Assembly: GCA_963662405.2 (NCBI GenBank)
Contig: CAXXKT010000001.1
Location: 32,001-96,000, forward strand
DNA: 64,000 nucleotides
Direction: 5' to 3'
Source: Syntrophales bacterium
Lineage (GTDB): Bacteria; Desulfobacterota; Syntrophia; Syntrophales; UBA2210
The notes under the pieces were generated by a model. That model saw nothing but the letters and a program-made list of their open reading frames with translations. It was not told the origin of the DNA and ran no database searches. Shown one piece after another: positions 6,514 to 64,000 of this stretch (the stretch's first letter is position 1; every line of letters begins with the position of its first letter). A program made the translations under genes and the position numbers.

Positions 6514-7140
6514 TCAATCTTTTTCCAATACGAAGAATCGGTGATAGGTATTCTGAGGTACTGTGCGATTGACGATGATCCGGAACCCCGCACGCTCAAT
6601 ATCCGCCACGATTCTCTTCAGCGGATATCCCCGGACACCGATTTCCCAATAATGATTCCGTCCCGCCGGTTTTTCATACGGCGGATATCGACCGATATCC
6701 CGGAATATACCTATGTAGGCATCTTTTTTCATCCAAGGCAGATGTAACTGAAAATCAAGATACTTCCTGCCCTGGGGAAGCGAGAGGAGAACATGCTTCC
6801 GGGCTACCCGGTAAAACGATCGAAGGCAGGGGAGAAACTGATCGTATTCCAGGTGTTCGAGCACCTGAAACGATGCGATCAGATCAAACGACTCTTCCTT
6901 GAACGGCAGTGTCCTGATATCGGCCGTAATATCGGCGGCGACATCTTTGGATATGTCGCAGGTCAGCATAGAGTATCCCAGTGCTCGCAGGGTGGACGAC
7001 ATGATCCCGTCGCCGACACCCAATTCAAGGATGGTATCCGGCCGGCATTCCGAAATATACTGCATCTGCCAGTAGTAACTGACCCACCGGTTGTATTTGA
7101 TCCGTTTGTAGTATGTATCATCACTTCTGGAGAGGATCAT
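6514..7140 (-). CDS. class I SAM-dependent methyltransferase (type 11-like)
   Basis: ILELGVGDG, LPFKEESFDLI, QVLEHL. Confidence 0.88.
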   Translation of the reverse strand: MILSRSDDTYYKRIKYNRWVSYYWQMQYISECRPDTILELGVGDGIMSSTLRALGYSMLTCDISKDVAADITADIRTLPFKEESFDLIASFQVLEHLEYDQFLPCLRSFYRVARKHVLLSLPQGRKYLDFQLHLPWMKKDAYIGIFRDIGRYPPYEKPAGRNHYWEIGVRGYPLKRIVADIERAGFRIIVNRTVPQNTYHRFFVLEKD

Positions 7141-7278
7141 CGTTATTGCCTCAATACCGTTGAAAATCGATGGCGACCGTTCTCCTCGCACATCTCATAC
7201 CGAAAGTCGGTACGTATCCGTTGATAGACAGCCTTGACACCAACAACTCCCCTGACATTAACAGCCCCGGTCCCACGA

Positions 7279-7454
7279 CACAAAACCCCGCCTCTGTCTG
7301 AGAAACGGGGCCCCGATATCCCCAAACCACATGCTCCCCTTCTCGCAAGATGAAGAGGGGCACGCCAGGATTACGACGCGTACGCACTAAAACGATTAGT
7401 TTTCTTACTACAGTGCCGAAACAGTTGTCAAACTCTTCATATCTTCTTTCCGCC
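7279..7454 (-). repeat. copy 2 of the ~175-bp diverged repeat
   Basis: Same blocks and near-identical spacing as copy 1 (176 vs 175 bp). Confidence 0.85.
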
Positions 7455-7500
7455 AATTTCTCGAGTTCTCGATTGGGTTCAATACCGCATATACAACGAA

Positions 7501-7521
7501 AGCCGGGACTATATCCCGGCT
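7501..7521 (-). terminator. probable terminator downstream of gldA
   Basis: AGCCGGGA-TATAG-TCCCGGCT followed by TTCGTTGT on the minus strand. Confidence 0.55.
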
Positions 7522-7597
7522 CACATCGGCAGTGCAGGCCTTTCGGGAAAATCGCCCGTACGGAAACGCCCGGCACTGTGTAAAATAATTGTTGCTC

Positions 7598-8689
7598 TTA
7601 CCCTTTTCGGCGAATGCCTTCCGCATTCGCCATTTTCAACGAAGCGACCACATCTTGCGCGGTTACCGGGATCAATTCATTGTGAACGGATTGCTTCGCC
7701 CCGCAGGCAATCTCGGCAACCTTCATCAGATCATCGTCCGACACGCCGTCGAGGCCGATATCGGCGAACGTCGAGGGCAGACCGACCGATCGACAGAAAG
7801 AATAGACCTCGTCGATGGTTTCCTTCGGCTTGTCGGTGAGGAAAAGAGAGGCAAGGACCCCGAGGGCGACCTTCTCGCCGTGATAATACCCATGGCACTG
7901 CTCAAGCGCCGTCAGGCCGTCATGGATTGCATGTGCCGCGGCAAGACCACCGCTTTCAAATCCCAGACCGCTCAGGAGGGTATTGGCCTCCGTGACGTGT
8001 TCCAGCGCGGGGGTAACGACCTTCGCTTCACATGCCATTTTGGCCGCCATGCCATGTTCGATAAGGAGATCATAACAGAGACGCGCAAGGGTGAAGACCG
8101 CCGCCGACCCGGCGCCCCCGGCCATATTCCGGGCATGTTTGATCATACACGATTCCGCCTCGAACCACGTGGCCAGCGCGTCACCCATCCCCGCCACCAG
8201 GAGTCTCACGGGCGAACGGGCGATGATGTCCGTATCGACCAACACGACATCGGGGTTTTTCCGAAGGACCAGAAGGCGTTTAATGCGTCCCGTCTCACGG
8301 TAGATCACCGACAGGGCACTGCACGGGGCATCCGTCGAGGCAATGGTCGGGACCACGATGACCGGACACGAGAGATTGTGGGCAACCGCCTTGGCCGTAT
8401 CCAGGGTCTTTCCCCCGCCGATCCCGATGATTACGTCACATGCCGCGTTCTTCGCCAGATCACCCAACCGGTCGATCTCTTCATCCAGACATTCACGCCC
8501 GAACCGCTCGGCGACAATCGGAACGGCGGCCTCCAGCTCTTCCCTGAGGGGGGGAAGAACGGTGTCAAAGGATGAGGGACTGCAGATGAGAAACCCCTTC
8601 GTCCCATAGCGGGGGATCAGTTTGGTCAGACGCGCGATAGCGCCGCTCCCTTGTACATATCGTCCGGGGAAAATAGTGGTCGTAATCAT
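7598..8689 (-). CDS. gldA: glycerol dehydrogenase family alcohol dehydrogenase
   Basis: FPGRYVQG, GIGGGKTLDTAK, PTIASTDAPCSAL, AAHAIHDGL, HGEKVA. Confidence 0.9.
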   Translation of the reverse strand: MITTTIFPGRYVQGSGAIARLTKLIPRYGTKGFLICSPSSFDTVLPPLREELEAAVPIVAERFGRECLDEEIDRLGDLAKNAACDVIIGIGGGKTLDTAKAVAHNLSCPVIVVPTIASTDAPCSALSVIYRETGRIKRLLVLRKNPDVVLVDTDIIARSPVRLLVAGMGDALATWFEAESCMIKHARNMAGGAGSAAVFTLARLCYDLLIEHGMAAKMACEAKVVTPALEHVTEANTLLSGLGFESGGLAAAHAIHDGLTALEQCHGYYHGEKVALGVLASLFLTDKPKETIDEVYSFCRSVGLPSTFADIGLDGVSDDDLMKVAEIACGAKQSVHNELIPVTAQDVVASLKMANAEGIRRKG

Positions 8690-60418: not shown

Positions 60419-61630
60419 ATGTCGGTATATTTGTGGGAGGGAACAACCAGAAGGGGGGAAAAGAAAAAGGGTGAAATGGAGGCAGCGGATGAAAGCAGTG
60501 TGAGGATCCAGCTCCGCCGTCAGCGAATCAAACCCGAGAATATAAAGAAAAAACCCAAGGATCTCTTTGAGAACATTCCTTTCCTTCAGCAGAAGGTCAA
60601 AGAGCATGATGTGGTGGTCTTCGCCAGGCAATTCGCCACGATGATCAACGCCGGGCTCCCCATCATTCAGTGTTTGGACCTCCTCGGTGAAGAGGAAAAA
60701 AATCCTTCTTTTGCAAAGATCATCAAAACGATCAAAGATGATATCGAAGGAGGATCTTCGCTCACGGATGCCCTCAGCCAATATCCTGACGTCTTTGACG
60801 AACTGTTCGTCAACCTGATCACTGCCGGTGAAGCGGGCGGCATCCTGGATGTGATCCTCAATCGTCTTTCCGCATATATGGAAAAAGCGATAGCACTGAA
60901 ACGGAAAGTCAAGGGAGCTATGACGTACCCGGTTACCGTTCTCATTGTTGCCGTAGCGGTGGTCATCCTCCTCCTTTACAAGGTTGTCCCTGTTTTCGAG
61001 GAAATGTTTTCAAGCATGGGATCGGCCCTCCCGGGCCCGACACAGTTTCTTGTCGATCTGAGCCGTTTCGTTCAAAACAATATCCTCTATATACTGGGGG
61101 GAATCGCCCTCTTCGTCTTTGTCTTTCGGAGATATTACAAAACCCGGCGGGGGAGACTTCAGGTAGATCGTTTTGTCCTCAAGCTACCCGTATTCGGCAT
61201 CTTACTAAAGAAAGTCGCCGTAGCAAAATTCTCACGGACCCTCTCCACGATGATGAGCAGCGGCGTTCCCATCCTTGACGGACTTGAGATCGTCAGCAAG
61301 ACAGCGGGGAACAAGGTGATCGAAAAGGCCCTGATGAACACCAGAAAGAGCATAAGTGAAGGGAGGACGATCGCCGCGCCCCTTGCGGAAGCGGACATCT
61401 TTCCTTCCATGGTCGTCTCCATGATAGCGGTGGGTGAAAACACCGGCGCCCTCGATGCCATGTTGGAAAAGATAGCCGATTTTTACGATTCCGAGGTGGA
61501 TGCCGCGGTGAGTGCCTTGACATCACTGCTTGAACCCATCATGATGGTGTTTCTGGGAGGTGTTGTGGGGGGGATGATCGTCGCCCTCTATCTGCCCATC
61601 TTTTCGATGGCAGGAGCCGTCGCCGGGTAG
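60419..61630 (+). CDS. pilC: type IV pilus platform protein (GspF/PilC family)
   Basis: RQFATMI.AGLP, AGE.GG.LD, A.TYP, VGE.TG.LD.ML, LYLPIF. Confidence 0.9.
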   Translation: MSVYLWEGTTRRGEKKKGEMEAADESSVRIQLRRQRIKPENIKKKPKDLFENIPFLQQKVKEHDVVVFARQFATMINAGLPIIQCLDLLGEEEKNPSFAKIIKTIKDDIEGGSSLTDALSQYPDVFDELFVNLITAGEAGGILDVILNRLSAYMEKAIALKRKVKGAMTYPVTVLIVAVAVVILLLYKVVPVFEEMFSSMGSALPGPTQFLVDLSRFVQNNILYILGGIALFVFVFRRYYKTRRGRLQVDRFVLKLPVFGILLKKVAVAKFSRTLSTMMSSGVPILDGLEIVSKTAGNKVIEKALMNTRKSISEGRTIAAPLAEADIFPSMVVSMIAVGENTGALDAMLEKIADFYDSEVDAAVSALTSLLEPIMMVFLGGVVGGMIVALYLPIFSMAGAVAG

Positions 61631-61642
61631 CAATTCATAAAA

Positions 61643-61719
61643 TGGTCGGGATGGCGCGATTTGAACGCGCGACTCCTGCGTCCCGAACGCAGTGCCCTAC
61701 CAGGCTGGGCCACATCCCG
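61643..61719 (-). tRNA. tRNA-Pro(CGG), CCA encoded
   Basis: CGGGATG/CATCCCG acceptor stem, CTGCG-TTCGGGA-CGCAG anticodon arm, GTTCAAATC T-loop, ACCA end. Confidence 0.97.
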
Positions 61720-61871
61720 ACAGCCCCATTGACTATATAATTTATCTCGAAATGTCCATAAAAAAGTGAACCATGCCGTGTGCAATCTGCGTTAAAGGTG
61801 ATGTCACGACTTGTCTGATGCGGATTTTCATGATATTGGTCAGCCAACGCTCTACAGGAGGAATCGGTTCC

Positions 61872-62288
61872 GTGATCATTTATGACCTCAAGTGTGAAAA
61901 TAGCCACACTTTCGAAGGCTGGTTCAACGACAGAAATGCCTTTGAAAATCAGCGAAAGAAAAATCTCGTCACCTGTCCGGTGTGCGGCAGTTCGAGCATA
62001 GATATCGTCCCTTCAACCATTACGGTCATGGGAAAGGGGACCGAGCGACTCAATGATTCACGTAAACGAGAACTCTCCCCCCTGAAGGCCCTCCAGATGT
62101 TCCACGAGTATGTCGATAAGACATTCGAAGATGTGGGAAGCCGGTTCGCCGAAGTTGCCCTGCGGATCCACGCCGGCGAGGAAGACCACAGAAACATCAA
62201 GGGAACCACGACGGAACGGGAAGAAACCGTCCTCACTGAAGAAGGCGTCCCTTTCGTCAAGATCCCCGTACCGAAGTTCGACAGCTGA
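61872..62288 (+). CDS. DUF1178 family protein
   Basis: AGGAGG then GTG; IYDLKC...HTFEGWF, CPVCGS, EDVG.RFAE.A..IH. Confidence 0.88.
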   Translation: MIIYDLKCENSHTFEGWFNDRNAFENQRKKNLVTCPVCGSSSIDIVPSTITVMGKGTERLNDSRKRELSPLKALQMFHEYVDKTFEDVGSRFAEVALRIHAGEEDHRNIKGTTTEREETVLTEEGVPFVKIPVPKFDS

Positions 62289-62313: not shown

Positions 62314-64000
62314 ATGAAAAAACGCTATAACAATATTCTTGATCTGATCGGGGGTACCCCTCTCGTTGAGATCCGCCGTTTAAATCCCCACAAACACGTC
62401 ACCATCTATGCCAAAATGGAGGTGATGAATCCCGGTGGATCAATCAAGGACCGAACCGCTCTCGCTATGATAGAGAGGGCCGAGGAGAGGGGGGACCTCA
62501 CTCCTGGAATGATCATCCTCGAGGCAACCAGCGGCAACACCGGCATCGGTCTTGCGATGGTCGCGGCAGCAAAGGGGTATCGCCTGACCCTGATCATGCC
62601 CGAGTCGGCCAGCGAAGAGCGGAAAAAAACAGTAAAGGCCATGGGCGCCCACCTGCATCTGACCCCGGCCGAGCTGGGAACCGACGGCGCGATCGAGGTG
62701 GCGTACGAGATGCTCCGTGCTCATCCCGAACTATATTTCGCCACCGATCAGTTCAACTCCGAAGACAACATCATGGCCCACTACCACGGAACGGGGGAAG
62801 AGATCTGGGAGCAAACCGACCATCAGGTTACCATGGTCGTGGCAACCCTCGGGACATCCGGGACCGTTATGGGCATCTCCCGGAGGCTTAAAGAATACGG
62901 CAAAGATATAAAAATCGTCGGGGTTGAACCCTATCTCCACCACAAGATTCAGGGGCTCAAGAACATGAAGGAGTCATACCGGCCGGGTATCTTCGATAGG
63001 AACCTCCTGGATGAAAAGGTCAACATCCTGGATGAAGACGCCTTTGAGATGGCCCGGGCCCTGGCACGCACCGAGGGACTCTTCGTCGGCATGAGCTCCG
63101 GTGCGGCCATGCACGTGGCCCTCGAAAAGGCCCGGGAGATGAACGAGGGGGTGATCGTGGTCATCTTCCCCGACGGCGGTGAGCGGTATCTCAGCACATC
63201 CCTCTTTTCGGACCGTGAAGAGGTTTCTCTTCACCTGTACAACACGCTCACCCGGACCAAAGAACCCTTCAAACCGCGCAACGCCGATCAGATCCTGATG
63301 CACTCATGCGGACCAACCATGCACGAGGTGCCGCACATCGGGACATACCGCCGCTTCATCGTGGCGGACATGGTCGTCCGCTATTTGGAATTCAAGGGAT
63401 ATACGGTCAAACATGTCTCCAACATCATAGACCTGGCCGACCGATCCGTCCGCGGAGCCGAGAAGGCAGGCATGGATATCGGGGCCTTTACCCGCGGGCA
63501 CACCGAGACCTTTTTCAACGATCTCGCCACGCTCAATATCAATCATGATAATACCTACCCAACGGCGAGTGAAAACGTCGACGCTATGATCCAACTGACG
63601 GAGCAACTCGTGGAGAGAGGGTATGCTTACGAAAAGCTGCGGTCCGTGTATTTCGACATATCACGGCTCGAAGGCTACGGGACTTTGTCAAATATAGACT
63701 TGGCACACGTCCGCCATTCTCAGACAATCGACCAAGACGATTACGCAAAGGACAGCCCCGTCGACTTCAATCTTCTCAAGCGGTCTACTCTGGCTGAGCT
63801 GAAGGAGGGAATCTATTTTAAGACAAAGTGGGGAAACACCAGGCCCAGTTGGCACCTCGAGTGCGCAGCCCTCTCCATAAAGTATCTGGGGGAAACCTTT
63901 GATATCTACCTCAGTGGTACGGACATCATCTTCCCGCACTGCGAGAACGTCATGGCGATCGGCAAGGCCGCAACGGGGAAAAATATCGCGAACTACTGGC
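62314..64000 (+). CDS. cysteine synthase fused to a divergent cysteinyl-tRNA synthetase-like domain (runs off window)
   Basis: Uninterrupted frame of at least 562 codons, translated by hand. IGGTPL, NPGGSIKDR, EATSGNTG, GTSGT and ERYLS are followed by LYNTLTR.KEPF.P, CGPT, HIGT, RPSWHLEC and FPHCEN. Confidence 0.92.
   Translation, partial: MKKRYNNILDLIGGTPLVEIRRLNPHKHVTIYAKMEVMNPGGSIKDRTALAMIERAEERGDLTPGMIILEATSGNTGIGLAMVAAAKGYRLTLIMPESASEERKKTVKAMGAHLHLTPAELGTDGAIEVAYEMLRAHPELYFATDQFNSEDNIMAHYHGTGEEIWEQTDHQVTMVVATLGTSGTVMGISRRLKEYGKDIKIVGVEPYLHHKIQGLKNMKESYRPGIFDRNLLDEKVNILDEDAFEMARALARTEGLFVGMSSGAAMHVALEKAREMNEGVIVVIFPDGGERYLSTSLFSDREEVSLHLYNTLTRTKEPFKPRNADQILMHSCGPTMHEVPHIGTYRRFIVADMVVRYLEFKGYTVKHVSNIIDLADRSVRGAEKAGMDIGAFTRGHTETFFNDLATLNINHDNTYPTASENVDAMIQLTEQLVERGYAYEKLRSVYFDISRLEGYGTLSNIDLAHVRHSQTIDQDDYAKDSPVDFNLLKRSTLAELKEGIYFKTKWGNTRPSWHLECAALSIKYLGETFDIYLSGTDIIFPHCENVMAIGKAATGKNIANYW

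Follow-up and report, generated by a model that had tools for sequence, protein, structure and literature searches.

What does a bacterium do with a cysteine synthase joined, in a single polypeptide, to a protein resembling cysteinyl-tRNA synthetase (CysRS)? The question is raised by a gene at the end of a 64,000-nucleotide stretch of DNA from a Syntrophales bacterium (GTDB lineage UBA2210; GenBank assembly GCA_963662405.2, contig CAXXKT010000001.1, positions 32,001 to 96,000 of the forward strand), here called the window (G000:C1:32001-96000). In this gene, a pyridoxal 5'-phosphate (PLP)-dependent cysteine synthase of the CysM type runs in frame into a complete CysRS-like half. The cysteine synthase-CysRS-like fusion is a real, widespread and conserved gene, and its second half is a paralogue that stands beside an ordinary CysRS in every carrier genome compared. 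The function that we favour, tentatively, is that of a cysteine synthase with a built-in module binding tRNA-Cys and cysteine, which would couple cysteine synthesis to tRNA-Cys.

A first-pass annotation of this DNA had reported a single stop-free frame from 62314 joining two domains, and translation of the window and of the full gene confirms it. No stop codon interrupts the frame between 62314 and 64000 on the plus strand, and the list of open reading frames (ORFs) holds it solely as a 3'-open ORF starting at an in-frame upstream ATG at 62110. The ATG at 62314 is the position where the homologues start in their alignment; a G-rich stretch lies 6-12 nt upstream of it, and the stop of the previous gene is 25 nt away. 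The full gene, whose retrieval had been proposed, was recovered: it encodes a protein of 769 amino acids, anticodon-binding domain included, with its 3' end beyond the window at G000:C1:96623 (L003:6623). The landmarks SIKDR (62440-62454, with Lys45 at 62446-62448), YLSTSLF (63187-63207) and LHLYNTLTR (63229-63255) lie exactly where that annotation placed them, and the join that it put at about seven residues is exactly seven. Pfam assigns PALP (residues 9-287, E 2e-73) and tRNA-synt_1e (319-562, E 8e-61) to the part in the window; over the whole protein, tRNA-synt_1e extends over 319-622 and is followed by DALR_2 (658-710) and CysS_C (720-766), so that KMSRS (L003:6033-6047), DALR_2 and the CysS_C anticodon-binding domain all lie past the window end. 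An AlphaFold2 model based on 62 family members reached a predicted local distance difference test score (pLDDT) of 90.3 and a predicted template modelling score of 0.76, and is weaker at residues 461-480 and at the linker, where pLDDT falls to 67-77 in 10-residue blocks over residues 291-310. In a Foldseek search, each half superposes on its own solved family, and no solved chain spanning both halves was found, the best query-normalised template modelling score (TM-score) being 0.50. Docked as separate chains, the two halves scored 0.28 against a mark of 0.32, which argues neither for nor against contact between them.

The fusion recurs far beyond this genome. All 120 listed database relatives contain both Pfam domains, 119 of them are at least 740 amino acids long, and 89-100% of the query is aligned. 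Across 401 evenly sampled genomes of the phylum, the fusion in one stop-free frame gave 150 listed matches, own genome included, at 46-100% identity, while 15 further genomes are probable carriers, judged by E-value alone. Within the order, 11 of 14 other genomes carry it; a genome of the same genus (G138) and two others of the order hold ordinary CysRS genes alone. In another study, two runs yielded short contigs that span the junction (L003 5109-5284 and 5100-5294); they show 2 base differences and are free of indels. The listed relatives, the 150 matches among 401 genomes and the independent junction-crossing contigs together rule out an assembly artefact, and the refuting case that had been raised, a false junction between genes that are separate in relatives, is contradicted by the single frame that those relatives carry. 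The suspicion that similar fusions were already annotated in deltaproteobacteria proved correct: where sources label the fused relatives (in Syntrophales, Syntrophus aciditrophicus and other deltaproteobacteria), they name them 'cysteine--tRNA ligase'. A search of the open full-text literature found no paper on a CysM/CysK-CysRS fusion, and the available portions of PMC5389517, PMC8762117, PMC5424206, PMC2922099, PMC1779556, PMC5388404 and PMC9855970 mention none. As for habitat, four runs labelled marine sediment metagenome, which come from a single other study, contain 21-37% of the gene's sampled words (L003:4200-6700); three of these runs were compared, and some of their pieces match the gene at 99% or more. 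A very close relative of the source organism thus appears to live in that marine sediment.

The PLP half is predicted from its motifs to be an intact enzyme, and the pairwise identities given below mark it as the most constrained part of the protein. Its description as a complete PLP cysteine synthase of CysM character is borne out. The nearest solved structures are the Escherichia coli and Salmonella CysM chains 2bhs, 2v03 and 2jc3 (267-268 bits; Foldseek TM-score 0.96, relative to the chains), and Lys216 occupies the position of CysM Arg210. The half passes the cysKM subfamily model TIGR01136 (364.5 bits; cut-off 344.15) and just misses the CysM equivalog TIGR01138 (370.2 bits; cut-off 394.2), which is still its best-scoring model. 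Across 48 fused proteins, consisting of our own and 47 homologues, the Ser-Gly-Asn-Thr-Gly of the TSGNTG loop is invariant, the first residue being Thr in 44 and Ser in 4; we take this to be the substrate-carboxylate loop of O-acetylserine sulfhydrylases, which binds a free carboxylate. In the GLKNM loop, the first four residues are each found in 48/48, and the GMSSGAA motif (phosphate-binding GxSSG) is retained with conservative variants at a few positions. The contrast drawn earlier between IQGIG in CysK-type enzymes and IQGLKNM here holds against the genome's separate CysK (366.3 bits; TIGR01139 cut-off 350.95), which reads IQGIGDGF at this place. The first-pass annotation had further connected the basic residue of the loop with the use of O-phosphoserine. 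A supposed likeness of the loop to the O-phosphoserine enzyme of Mycobacterium tuberculosis was dropped, since a 36-residue query around GLKNM matched enteric CysM alone among solved structures; against the PLP half, moreover, the M. tuberculosis enzyme 3dki scores below enteric CysM (215 vs 268 bits). The link through the basic residue remains putative, while O-phosphoserine as a substrate does fit the lack of a serine acetyltransferase described below.

The second half resembles a full CysRS and departs from it at conserved residues. Its alignments to E. coli CysRS 1li5 (2-463 against 2-459) and to 8qhp run the full length, with Foldseek TM-scores of 0.92 (8qhp) and 0.80 (1u0b). It had been described as a class I CysRS catalytic domain, which does not hold in the ordinary sense: it is a paralogue beside a canonical cysS, altered at positions invariant in 31/31 canonical enzymes, with neither HIGH nor KMSKS intact (HIGT, KMSRS). 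The motif comparison set 31 canonical enzymes, from our own genome and 30 carriers, against the 48 fused proteins. Present in all 31 canonical enzymes, as are the other residues in this list, the fourth His of HIGH survives in 3 fused proteins and the second Lys of KMSKS in 2 (Arg in 28); the first His of HIGH is kept in 36 and lost in 12, Cys28 is kept in 42 and lost in 6, and Cys209, His234, Glu238 and Thr68 are kept in 44, 47, 27 and 29, respectively. Of 151 columns with little or no variation among the canonical enzymes, 18 show the canonical residue in 0/48 fused proteins, most of them holding a family-specific substitute. The CP1 motif M-x-A-G-A-R has become I-x-x-G-K-T and is altered in 48/48; the available part of Mukai et al. 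2016 (PMC5389517) ties this motif to the acceptor stem's first base pair. One fused clade is altogether without Cys28, HIGH, Cys209 and KMSKS, and several other lineages have a fully canonical cysteine pocket with HLGN and KMSRS. We take Cys28, Cys209, His234 and Glu238 to be the zinc ligands of E. coli CysRS and Thr68 and Trp205 to lie in its cysteine pocket, roles that reportedly come from Newberry et al. 2002. Of this set, our protein keeps Cys28, Cys209, His234 and Trp205, with Val at Glu238 and Ile at Thr68; the changed pocket residues are hydrophobic, not basic.

These pocket changes belong to the order of the source organism. In 13 same-order sequences, Thr68 is replaced by Ile or Val and Glu238 by Val, Ile or Leu, while His235 is Cys in 12/13 and KMSRS is retained in all; other lineages keep Thr68, His235 and Glu238. 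The 120 listed relatives, which form a close-relative set at 66-100% identity, show Ile68 in 116, Cys235 in 119, Val238 in 113 and Trp205 in 119. By this pattern of residues, the pocket of the order is remodelled and conserved, not decaying.

What the whole family retains lies elsewhere. The equivalents of E. coli Arg423, Arg427, Asp436, Arg439 and Asp451 are each present in 48/48 fused proteins, and the Trp432 position is aromatic in 48/48. According to the accessible text of PMC13449415, Arg427, Trp432, Asp436 and Arg439 are anticodon-binding-domain residues mutated to alter anticodon recognition, and Arg427 bonds to G34. Mean pairwise identity across 31 genomes is highest for the CysM half, at 68.3%, with canonical CysRS at 56.0% and the CysRS-like half at 50.4%; within the order, the corresponding values are 78.0, 63.3 and 59.7. 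The ratio of nonsynonymous to synonymous substitution rates (dN/dS) was computed for 12 pairs, and in the six with dS <1.4 that were used it is 0.04-0.16 for the CysRS-like half and 0.06-0.13 for the CysM half, the pairs with low values including lineages whose KMSKS reads KISQA or KMSYA. Five pairs were saturated or not computable, among them both pairs with our genome's near relatives and one pair from the dead lineage, and one remaining pair gave 0.37-0.42 for both halves. These ratios indicate that the CysRS-like half is under purifying selection. In the catalytically dead clade, its pairwise identity is 43-60% against 60-72% for the canonical enzyme (L061 pairs left out), a pattern that points to a half evolving faster than the canonical enzyme and clearly still constrained. 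Since catalytic residues are lost in several lineages and the whole domain is kept under selection there, the benefit it brings would be independent of aminoacylation. As far as alignments can tell, what stays constant across the family is the cysteine synthase and the tRNA-Cys anticodon head, both of them intact.

The gene content of the carriers bears on whether the fused half is the housekeeping CysRS. The first-pass annotation had proposed looking for a canonical cysS in carriers, and one was found in the source genome (C1:1913903-1915369, 555.8 bits, HIGH and KMSKS intact) and in 47/47 other carriers as a separate stand-alone gene, 46 of them at E <=1e-152 and one, more divergent, at 1.3e-85 with a 469-aa frame. 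The fused half is 33% identical to the canonical CysRS of its own genome and scores 173 bits lower on TIGR00435. It is never the sole CysRS of a genome and is not the housekeeping enzyme.

The same inquiry into carriers concerned the source of activated serine. No serine acetyltransferase was found in the source genome, which is rated 100% complete: the best cysE score is 39.6 bits against 210.65, and its three weak matches are other hexapeptide transferases. When 47 carriers were compared with the first 47 non-carriers in numerical order, a descriptive contrast among related genomes, cysE scored above the cut-off in 1/47 carriers and 20/47 non-carriers. A further 330-aa or so serine-acetyltransferase-like gene occurs in 20/47 carriers at 145-169 bits, below the cysE cut-off of 210.65; one of these 20, G187, additionally has a match above it. 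Neither SepRS nor SepCysS is found in the source genome (best profile scores 28.8 vs 380.65 and 37.7 vs 365.25). Cysteine synthesis in many of these anaerobes appears to run without the textbook CysE step. The tRNA complement is ordinary, with a single tRNA-Cys (GCA, G1:C72, U73) and one tRNA-Sec. No extra tRNA-Cys of the tRNA-Sec-like kind was detected, as all 19 matches to the tRNA-Sec model (E <=1) fall on tRNAs called by ARAGORN.

The function that we tentatively favour for the fusion can be set out from these observations. The PLP half would use sulfide and an activated serine to make cysteine; O-phosphoserine is the probable acceptor, since the genome lacks a serine acetyltransferase. 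The CysRS-derived half would dock tRNA-Cys via its GCA anticodon; binding of cysteine and ATP as well is probable in most lineages, and in the source lineage the half probably binds zinc, ATP and cysteine in the remodelled pocket. Occupancy of this module would then serve to adjust cysteine synthesis according to the state of tRNA-Cys. CysE is the step usually under feedback regulation, and its absence is in keeping with a need for control at some other point. Slow charging may persist in the source lineage, though the family as a whole would not be kept for charging, and the label 'cysteine--tRNA ligase' on the fused genes probably misstates their function. Synthetase paralogues with regulatory or biosynthetic roles are few, and include HisZ, GCN2, MshC and GluQRS; HisZ is a HisRS paralogue that regulates HisG, and GCN2 has a HisRS-like tRNA sensor. 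If the module senses tRNA-Cys, it would directly connect the state of a tRNA with an enzyme of bacterial amino-acid biosynthesis. About four of every ten genomes sampled from this major anaerobic phylum carry the fusion, whose anticodon head is kept even without catalysis.

Several observations weigh against this coupling. The His-x-Gly of the ATP motif is present in 120/120 close relatives (fourth position Thr in 66, Ser in 34 and Asn in 20), as is Lys-Met-Ser-Arg, and three of the four zinc positions are kept (Cys28 in 117/120, Cys209 and His234 in 120/120 each); a pure tRNA sensor would not need kept ATP motifs and zinc positions. The half passes the curated cysS equivalog TIGR00435, at 382.5 bits against a cut-off of 340. 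When any serine-acetyltransferase-like match at E <=1e-25 is counted, the figures become 20/47 carriers against 35/47 non-carriers, and the two groups are kin, hence not independent. No conserved neighbour that might hint at a regulatory role extends across the phylum, synteny (DUF1178, T2SS-F) being found at order level only; communication between the two halves remains putative; and so does the analogy to HisZ and GCN2. Several of these points favour a bifunctional route, in which the fused half takes cysteine produced by the CysM half, activates it and loads it directly onto tRNA-Cys beside the housekeeping CysRS, a route that could help when free cysteine is scarce or held low. Strict retention of the ATP motifs and three zinc positions in the order keeps such direct charging a serious rival, with which the cut-off score, the full CysRS fold with its anticodon-binding domain, the canonical pockets accompanying HLGN and KMSRS in several other lineages, and the single tRNA-Cys with its ordinary G1:C72 and U73 also agree; in the close relatives, His-x-Gly, Lys-Met-Ser-Arg, Trp205, Cys209, His234 and Asp229 each stand at 119-120/120. 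Set against it are His40, Thr68, Glu238 and Lys269, changed here and each invariant in 31/31 canonical enzymes, the CP1 motif that differs in every fused protein, the redundancy with canonical cysS in 47/47 carriers and the retention of the domain in lineages without catalysis. The earlier suggestion that newly made cysteine is channelled to tRNA is thus a live rival but not the best reading, and we hold it to be possible, if rather doubtful.

The remaining alternatives concern changed chemistry or no coupling at all. What the pocket activates and loads onto tRNA-Cys might be a cysteine derivative supplied by the CysM half (cysteine persulfide, S-sulfocysteine and selenocysteine are examples), or the PLP half might act on an aminoacyl-tRNA held by the CysRS half. 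The pocket changes of the order are fixed while the ATP motifs are kept, which is the usual pattern for a substrate switch in a paralogue, and the CysM-type isozyme, according to the available part of PMC9855970, also takes thiosulfate as a sulfur donor. This is nevertheless unlikely: SepRS and SepCysS are missing from the genome, the TSGNTG loop, kept in 48/48 fused proteins, argues for a free amino-acid substrate if its role is that given above, the pocket changes are limited to one order, the genome has no extra tRNA-Cys or tRNA-Sec-like tRNA, and no result points to a candidate substrate. The narrower proposal that the pocket of the order activates a sulfur-rich product of the CysM half (cysteine persulfide or S-sulfocysteine), not plain cysteine, and loads it onto tRNA-Cys is a long shot; if true, it would constitute a dedicated one-protein route to a non-canonical aminoacyl-tRNA. 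The first-pass idea of an analogue of SepRS/SepCysS built from other parts finds no support, given the missing Sep machinery, the intact TSGNTG loop and a pocket that has become more hydrophobic rather than basic. Finally, the two halves might act independently with ordinary specificities, one as a plain cysteine synthase and the other as an additional plain CysRS, which would suit halves that each pass a curated family cut-off and a short linker modelled with low confidence. The architecture kept in 150 listed of 401 sampled genomes at 46-67% identity, the 18 of 151 canonical-invariant columns with no canonical residue in any fused protein, and the catalytic degeneration in several lineages, which is not that of an ordinary CysRS, make such independence very improbable.

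Coordinates of the fusion gene, its domains and motifs, and its upstream neighbours (window positions unless another frame of reference is named)
Feature	Position	Strand	Basis or remark
Fusion gene	62314..64000, on to G000:C1:96623 (L003:4314-6623)	+	Open frame; codons 1-562 of 769 inside window
PLP cysteine synthase domain, CysM type, residues 9-287	62338..63174	+	Pfam PALP E 2e-73
Lys45, PLP Schiff-base lysine in SIKDR	62446..62448	+	Lys in 48/48 fused, 120/120 close relatives
TSGNTG loop, residues 72-77	62527..62544	+	Same as E. coli CysM loop
GLKNM active-site loop, residues 214-218, family-specific	62953..62967	+	Lys216 aligned to CysM Arg210
Linker SDREEVS, 7 residues, 299-305	63208..63228	+	Translation; position checked
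CysRS-like half, residues 306-562 in window, to 769 outside	63229..64000	+	End-to-end alignment to CysRS
Cys332 = E. coli Cys28	63307..63309	+	Cys in 42/48 fused, 117/120 close relatives, 31/31 canonical
HIGT replacing HIGH	63334..63345	+	Position checked; alignment to E. coli CysRS
Ile372 at E. coli Thr68 position	63427..63429	+	Thr in 31/31 canonical; Ile in 116/120 close relatives
WHLEC, Trp513 and Cys517 = E. coli Trp205 and Cys209	63850..63864	+	Trp in 45/48, Cys in 44/48 fused
HCENV replacing HHENE: His234 kept, His235 to Cys, Glu238 to Val	63937..63951	+	HHENE in 31/31 canonical
DUF1178 zinc-ribbon gene	61773..62288	+	Pfam 137 bits; ends 25 nt before fusion gene
T2SS-F/PilC-like gene	60419-61630		Upstream, conserved together with DUF1178
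tRNA-Pro (CGG)	61643-61719	-	About 600 nt upstream of fusion gene

The DUF1178 gene is probably co-transcribed with the fusion gene. Its Pfam match begins at residue 35 of a 171-aa ORF, and its true start is probably later than the ORF start. Of the 12 fused loci that are nearest in the tree, from 11 same-order genomes and G004, 10 have it upstream, and no more distant locus does; a functional link with the fusion is possible, and we know of no function for DUF1178. Scans of the upstream region for leaders and riboswitches returned the tRNA-Pro and a sub-threshold match to the SAM-II riboswitch (19 bits vs 44) and nothing else, and scans for promoters and terminators gave no usable signal. Past the window end lies a formate dehydrogenase cluster (L003:8746-11998, minus strand) with cytochrome b-like, iron-sulfur and large catalytic subunits, named from their translations; Pfam matches identify fdhE at L003 7755-8588 and an endonuclease III-like gene at 7041-7751.

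Among known systems, the fusion shares with canonical CysRS (E. coli CysS 1LI5/1U0B, 8QHP, TIGR00435) the full-length fold, the DALR and CysS_C domains, the anticodon-contact residues, and Cys28, Trp205, Cys209 and His234; it differs in its attachment to a PLP enzyme, in HIGT and KMSRS, in Ile, Cys and Val at the positions of Thr68, His235 and Glu238, respectively, and in the altered CP1. With CysM (E. coli 2BHS/2V03, Salmonella 2JC3), it has in common the PLP lysine, TSGNTG, GMSSGAA and a basic residue at the Arg210 position, whereas its invariant GLKNM stands where CysM has GIRRW, it bears a 465-residue C-terminal extension, and its genome lacks cysE. SepRS belongs to the class II synthetases and SepCysS to the PLP enzymes of fold type I; that pair likewise links cysteine formation to tRNA-Cys with the involvement of a PLP enzyme, but neither gene is present in the source genome, and the PLP half here keeps its TSGNTG loop.

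The CysRS* of Desulfobacterales, in the available portion of PMC5389517, is without an anticodon-binding domain and lies beside selB* and a tRNA-Sec-like tRNA-Cys (selC*). As far as that portion goes, the two have in common that they are second CysRS copies in deltaproteobacteria with an altered CP1 acceptor-stem motif, while the fused protein keeps the anticodon-binding domain, CysRS* is not fused to a PLP enzyme, and no such tRNA occurs here; membership in CysRS* was ruled out by the anticodon-binding domain and the lack of a tRNA-Sec-like tRNA-Cys. Separately, three carriers have a third, short CysRS-like gene (G362:C34:19103-20071, G187:C140:52369-53493 and G316:C281:12279-13397), in frames of 413-429 aa with matches ending near residue 318-386, hence without the anticodon-binding domain; these may correspond to CysRS* as described by Mukai et al. 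2016. In a same-order genome on a single contig, an extra CysRS-like stretch over two frames of 193 and 246 aa (G364:C1:1072239-1073235) looks like a broken third CysRS copy.

MshC, the mycothiol cysteine ligase (3C8Z), is another CysRS paralogue with a non-translational role, and it is not known to have an anticodon domain. The match to its solved chains ends at residue 318 of the 465-residue half, and an MshC-type ligase was rejected on the TIGR03447 score (124.5 vs a cut-off of 485.1) and the presence of the anticodon-binding domain. MshC acts independently of tRNA, according to the accessible part of PMC2922099. Compared with HisZ-HisG and GCN2, the fusion involves a different synthetase family and partner, its ATP and zinc positions are still conserved in the source lineage, and regulation is putative. 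What it shares with them is a synthetase paralogue outside translation, attached or fused to another enzyme as a sensing module, and in the case of HisZ the partner is, as here, a biosynthetic enzyme for the same amino acid.

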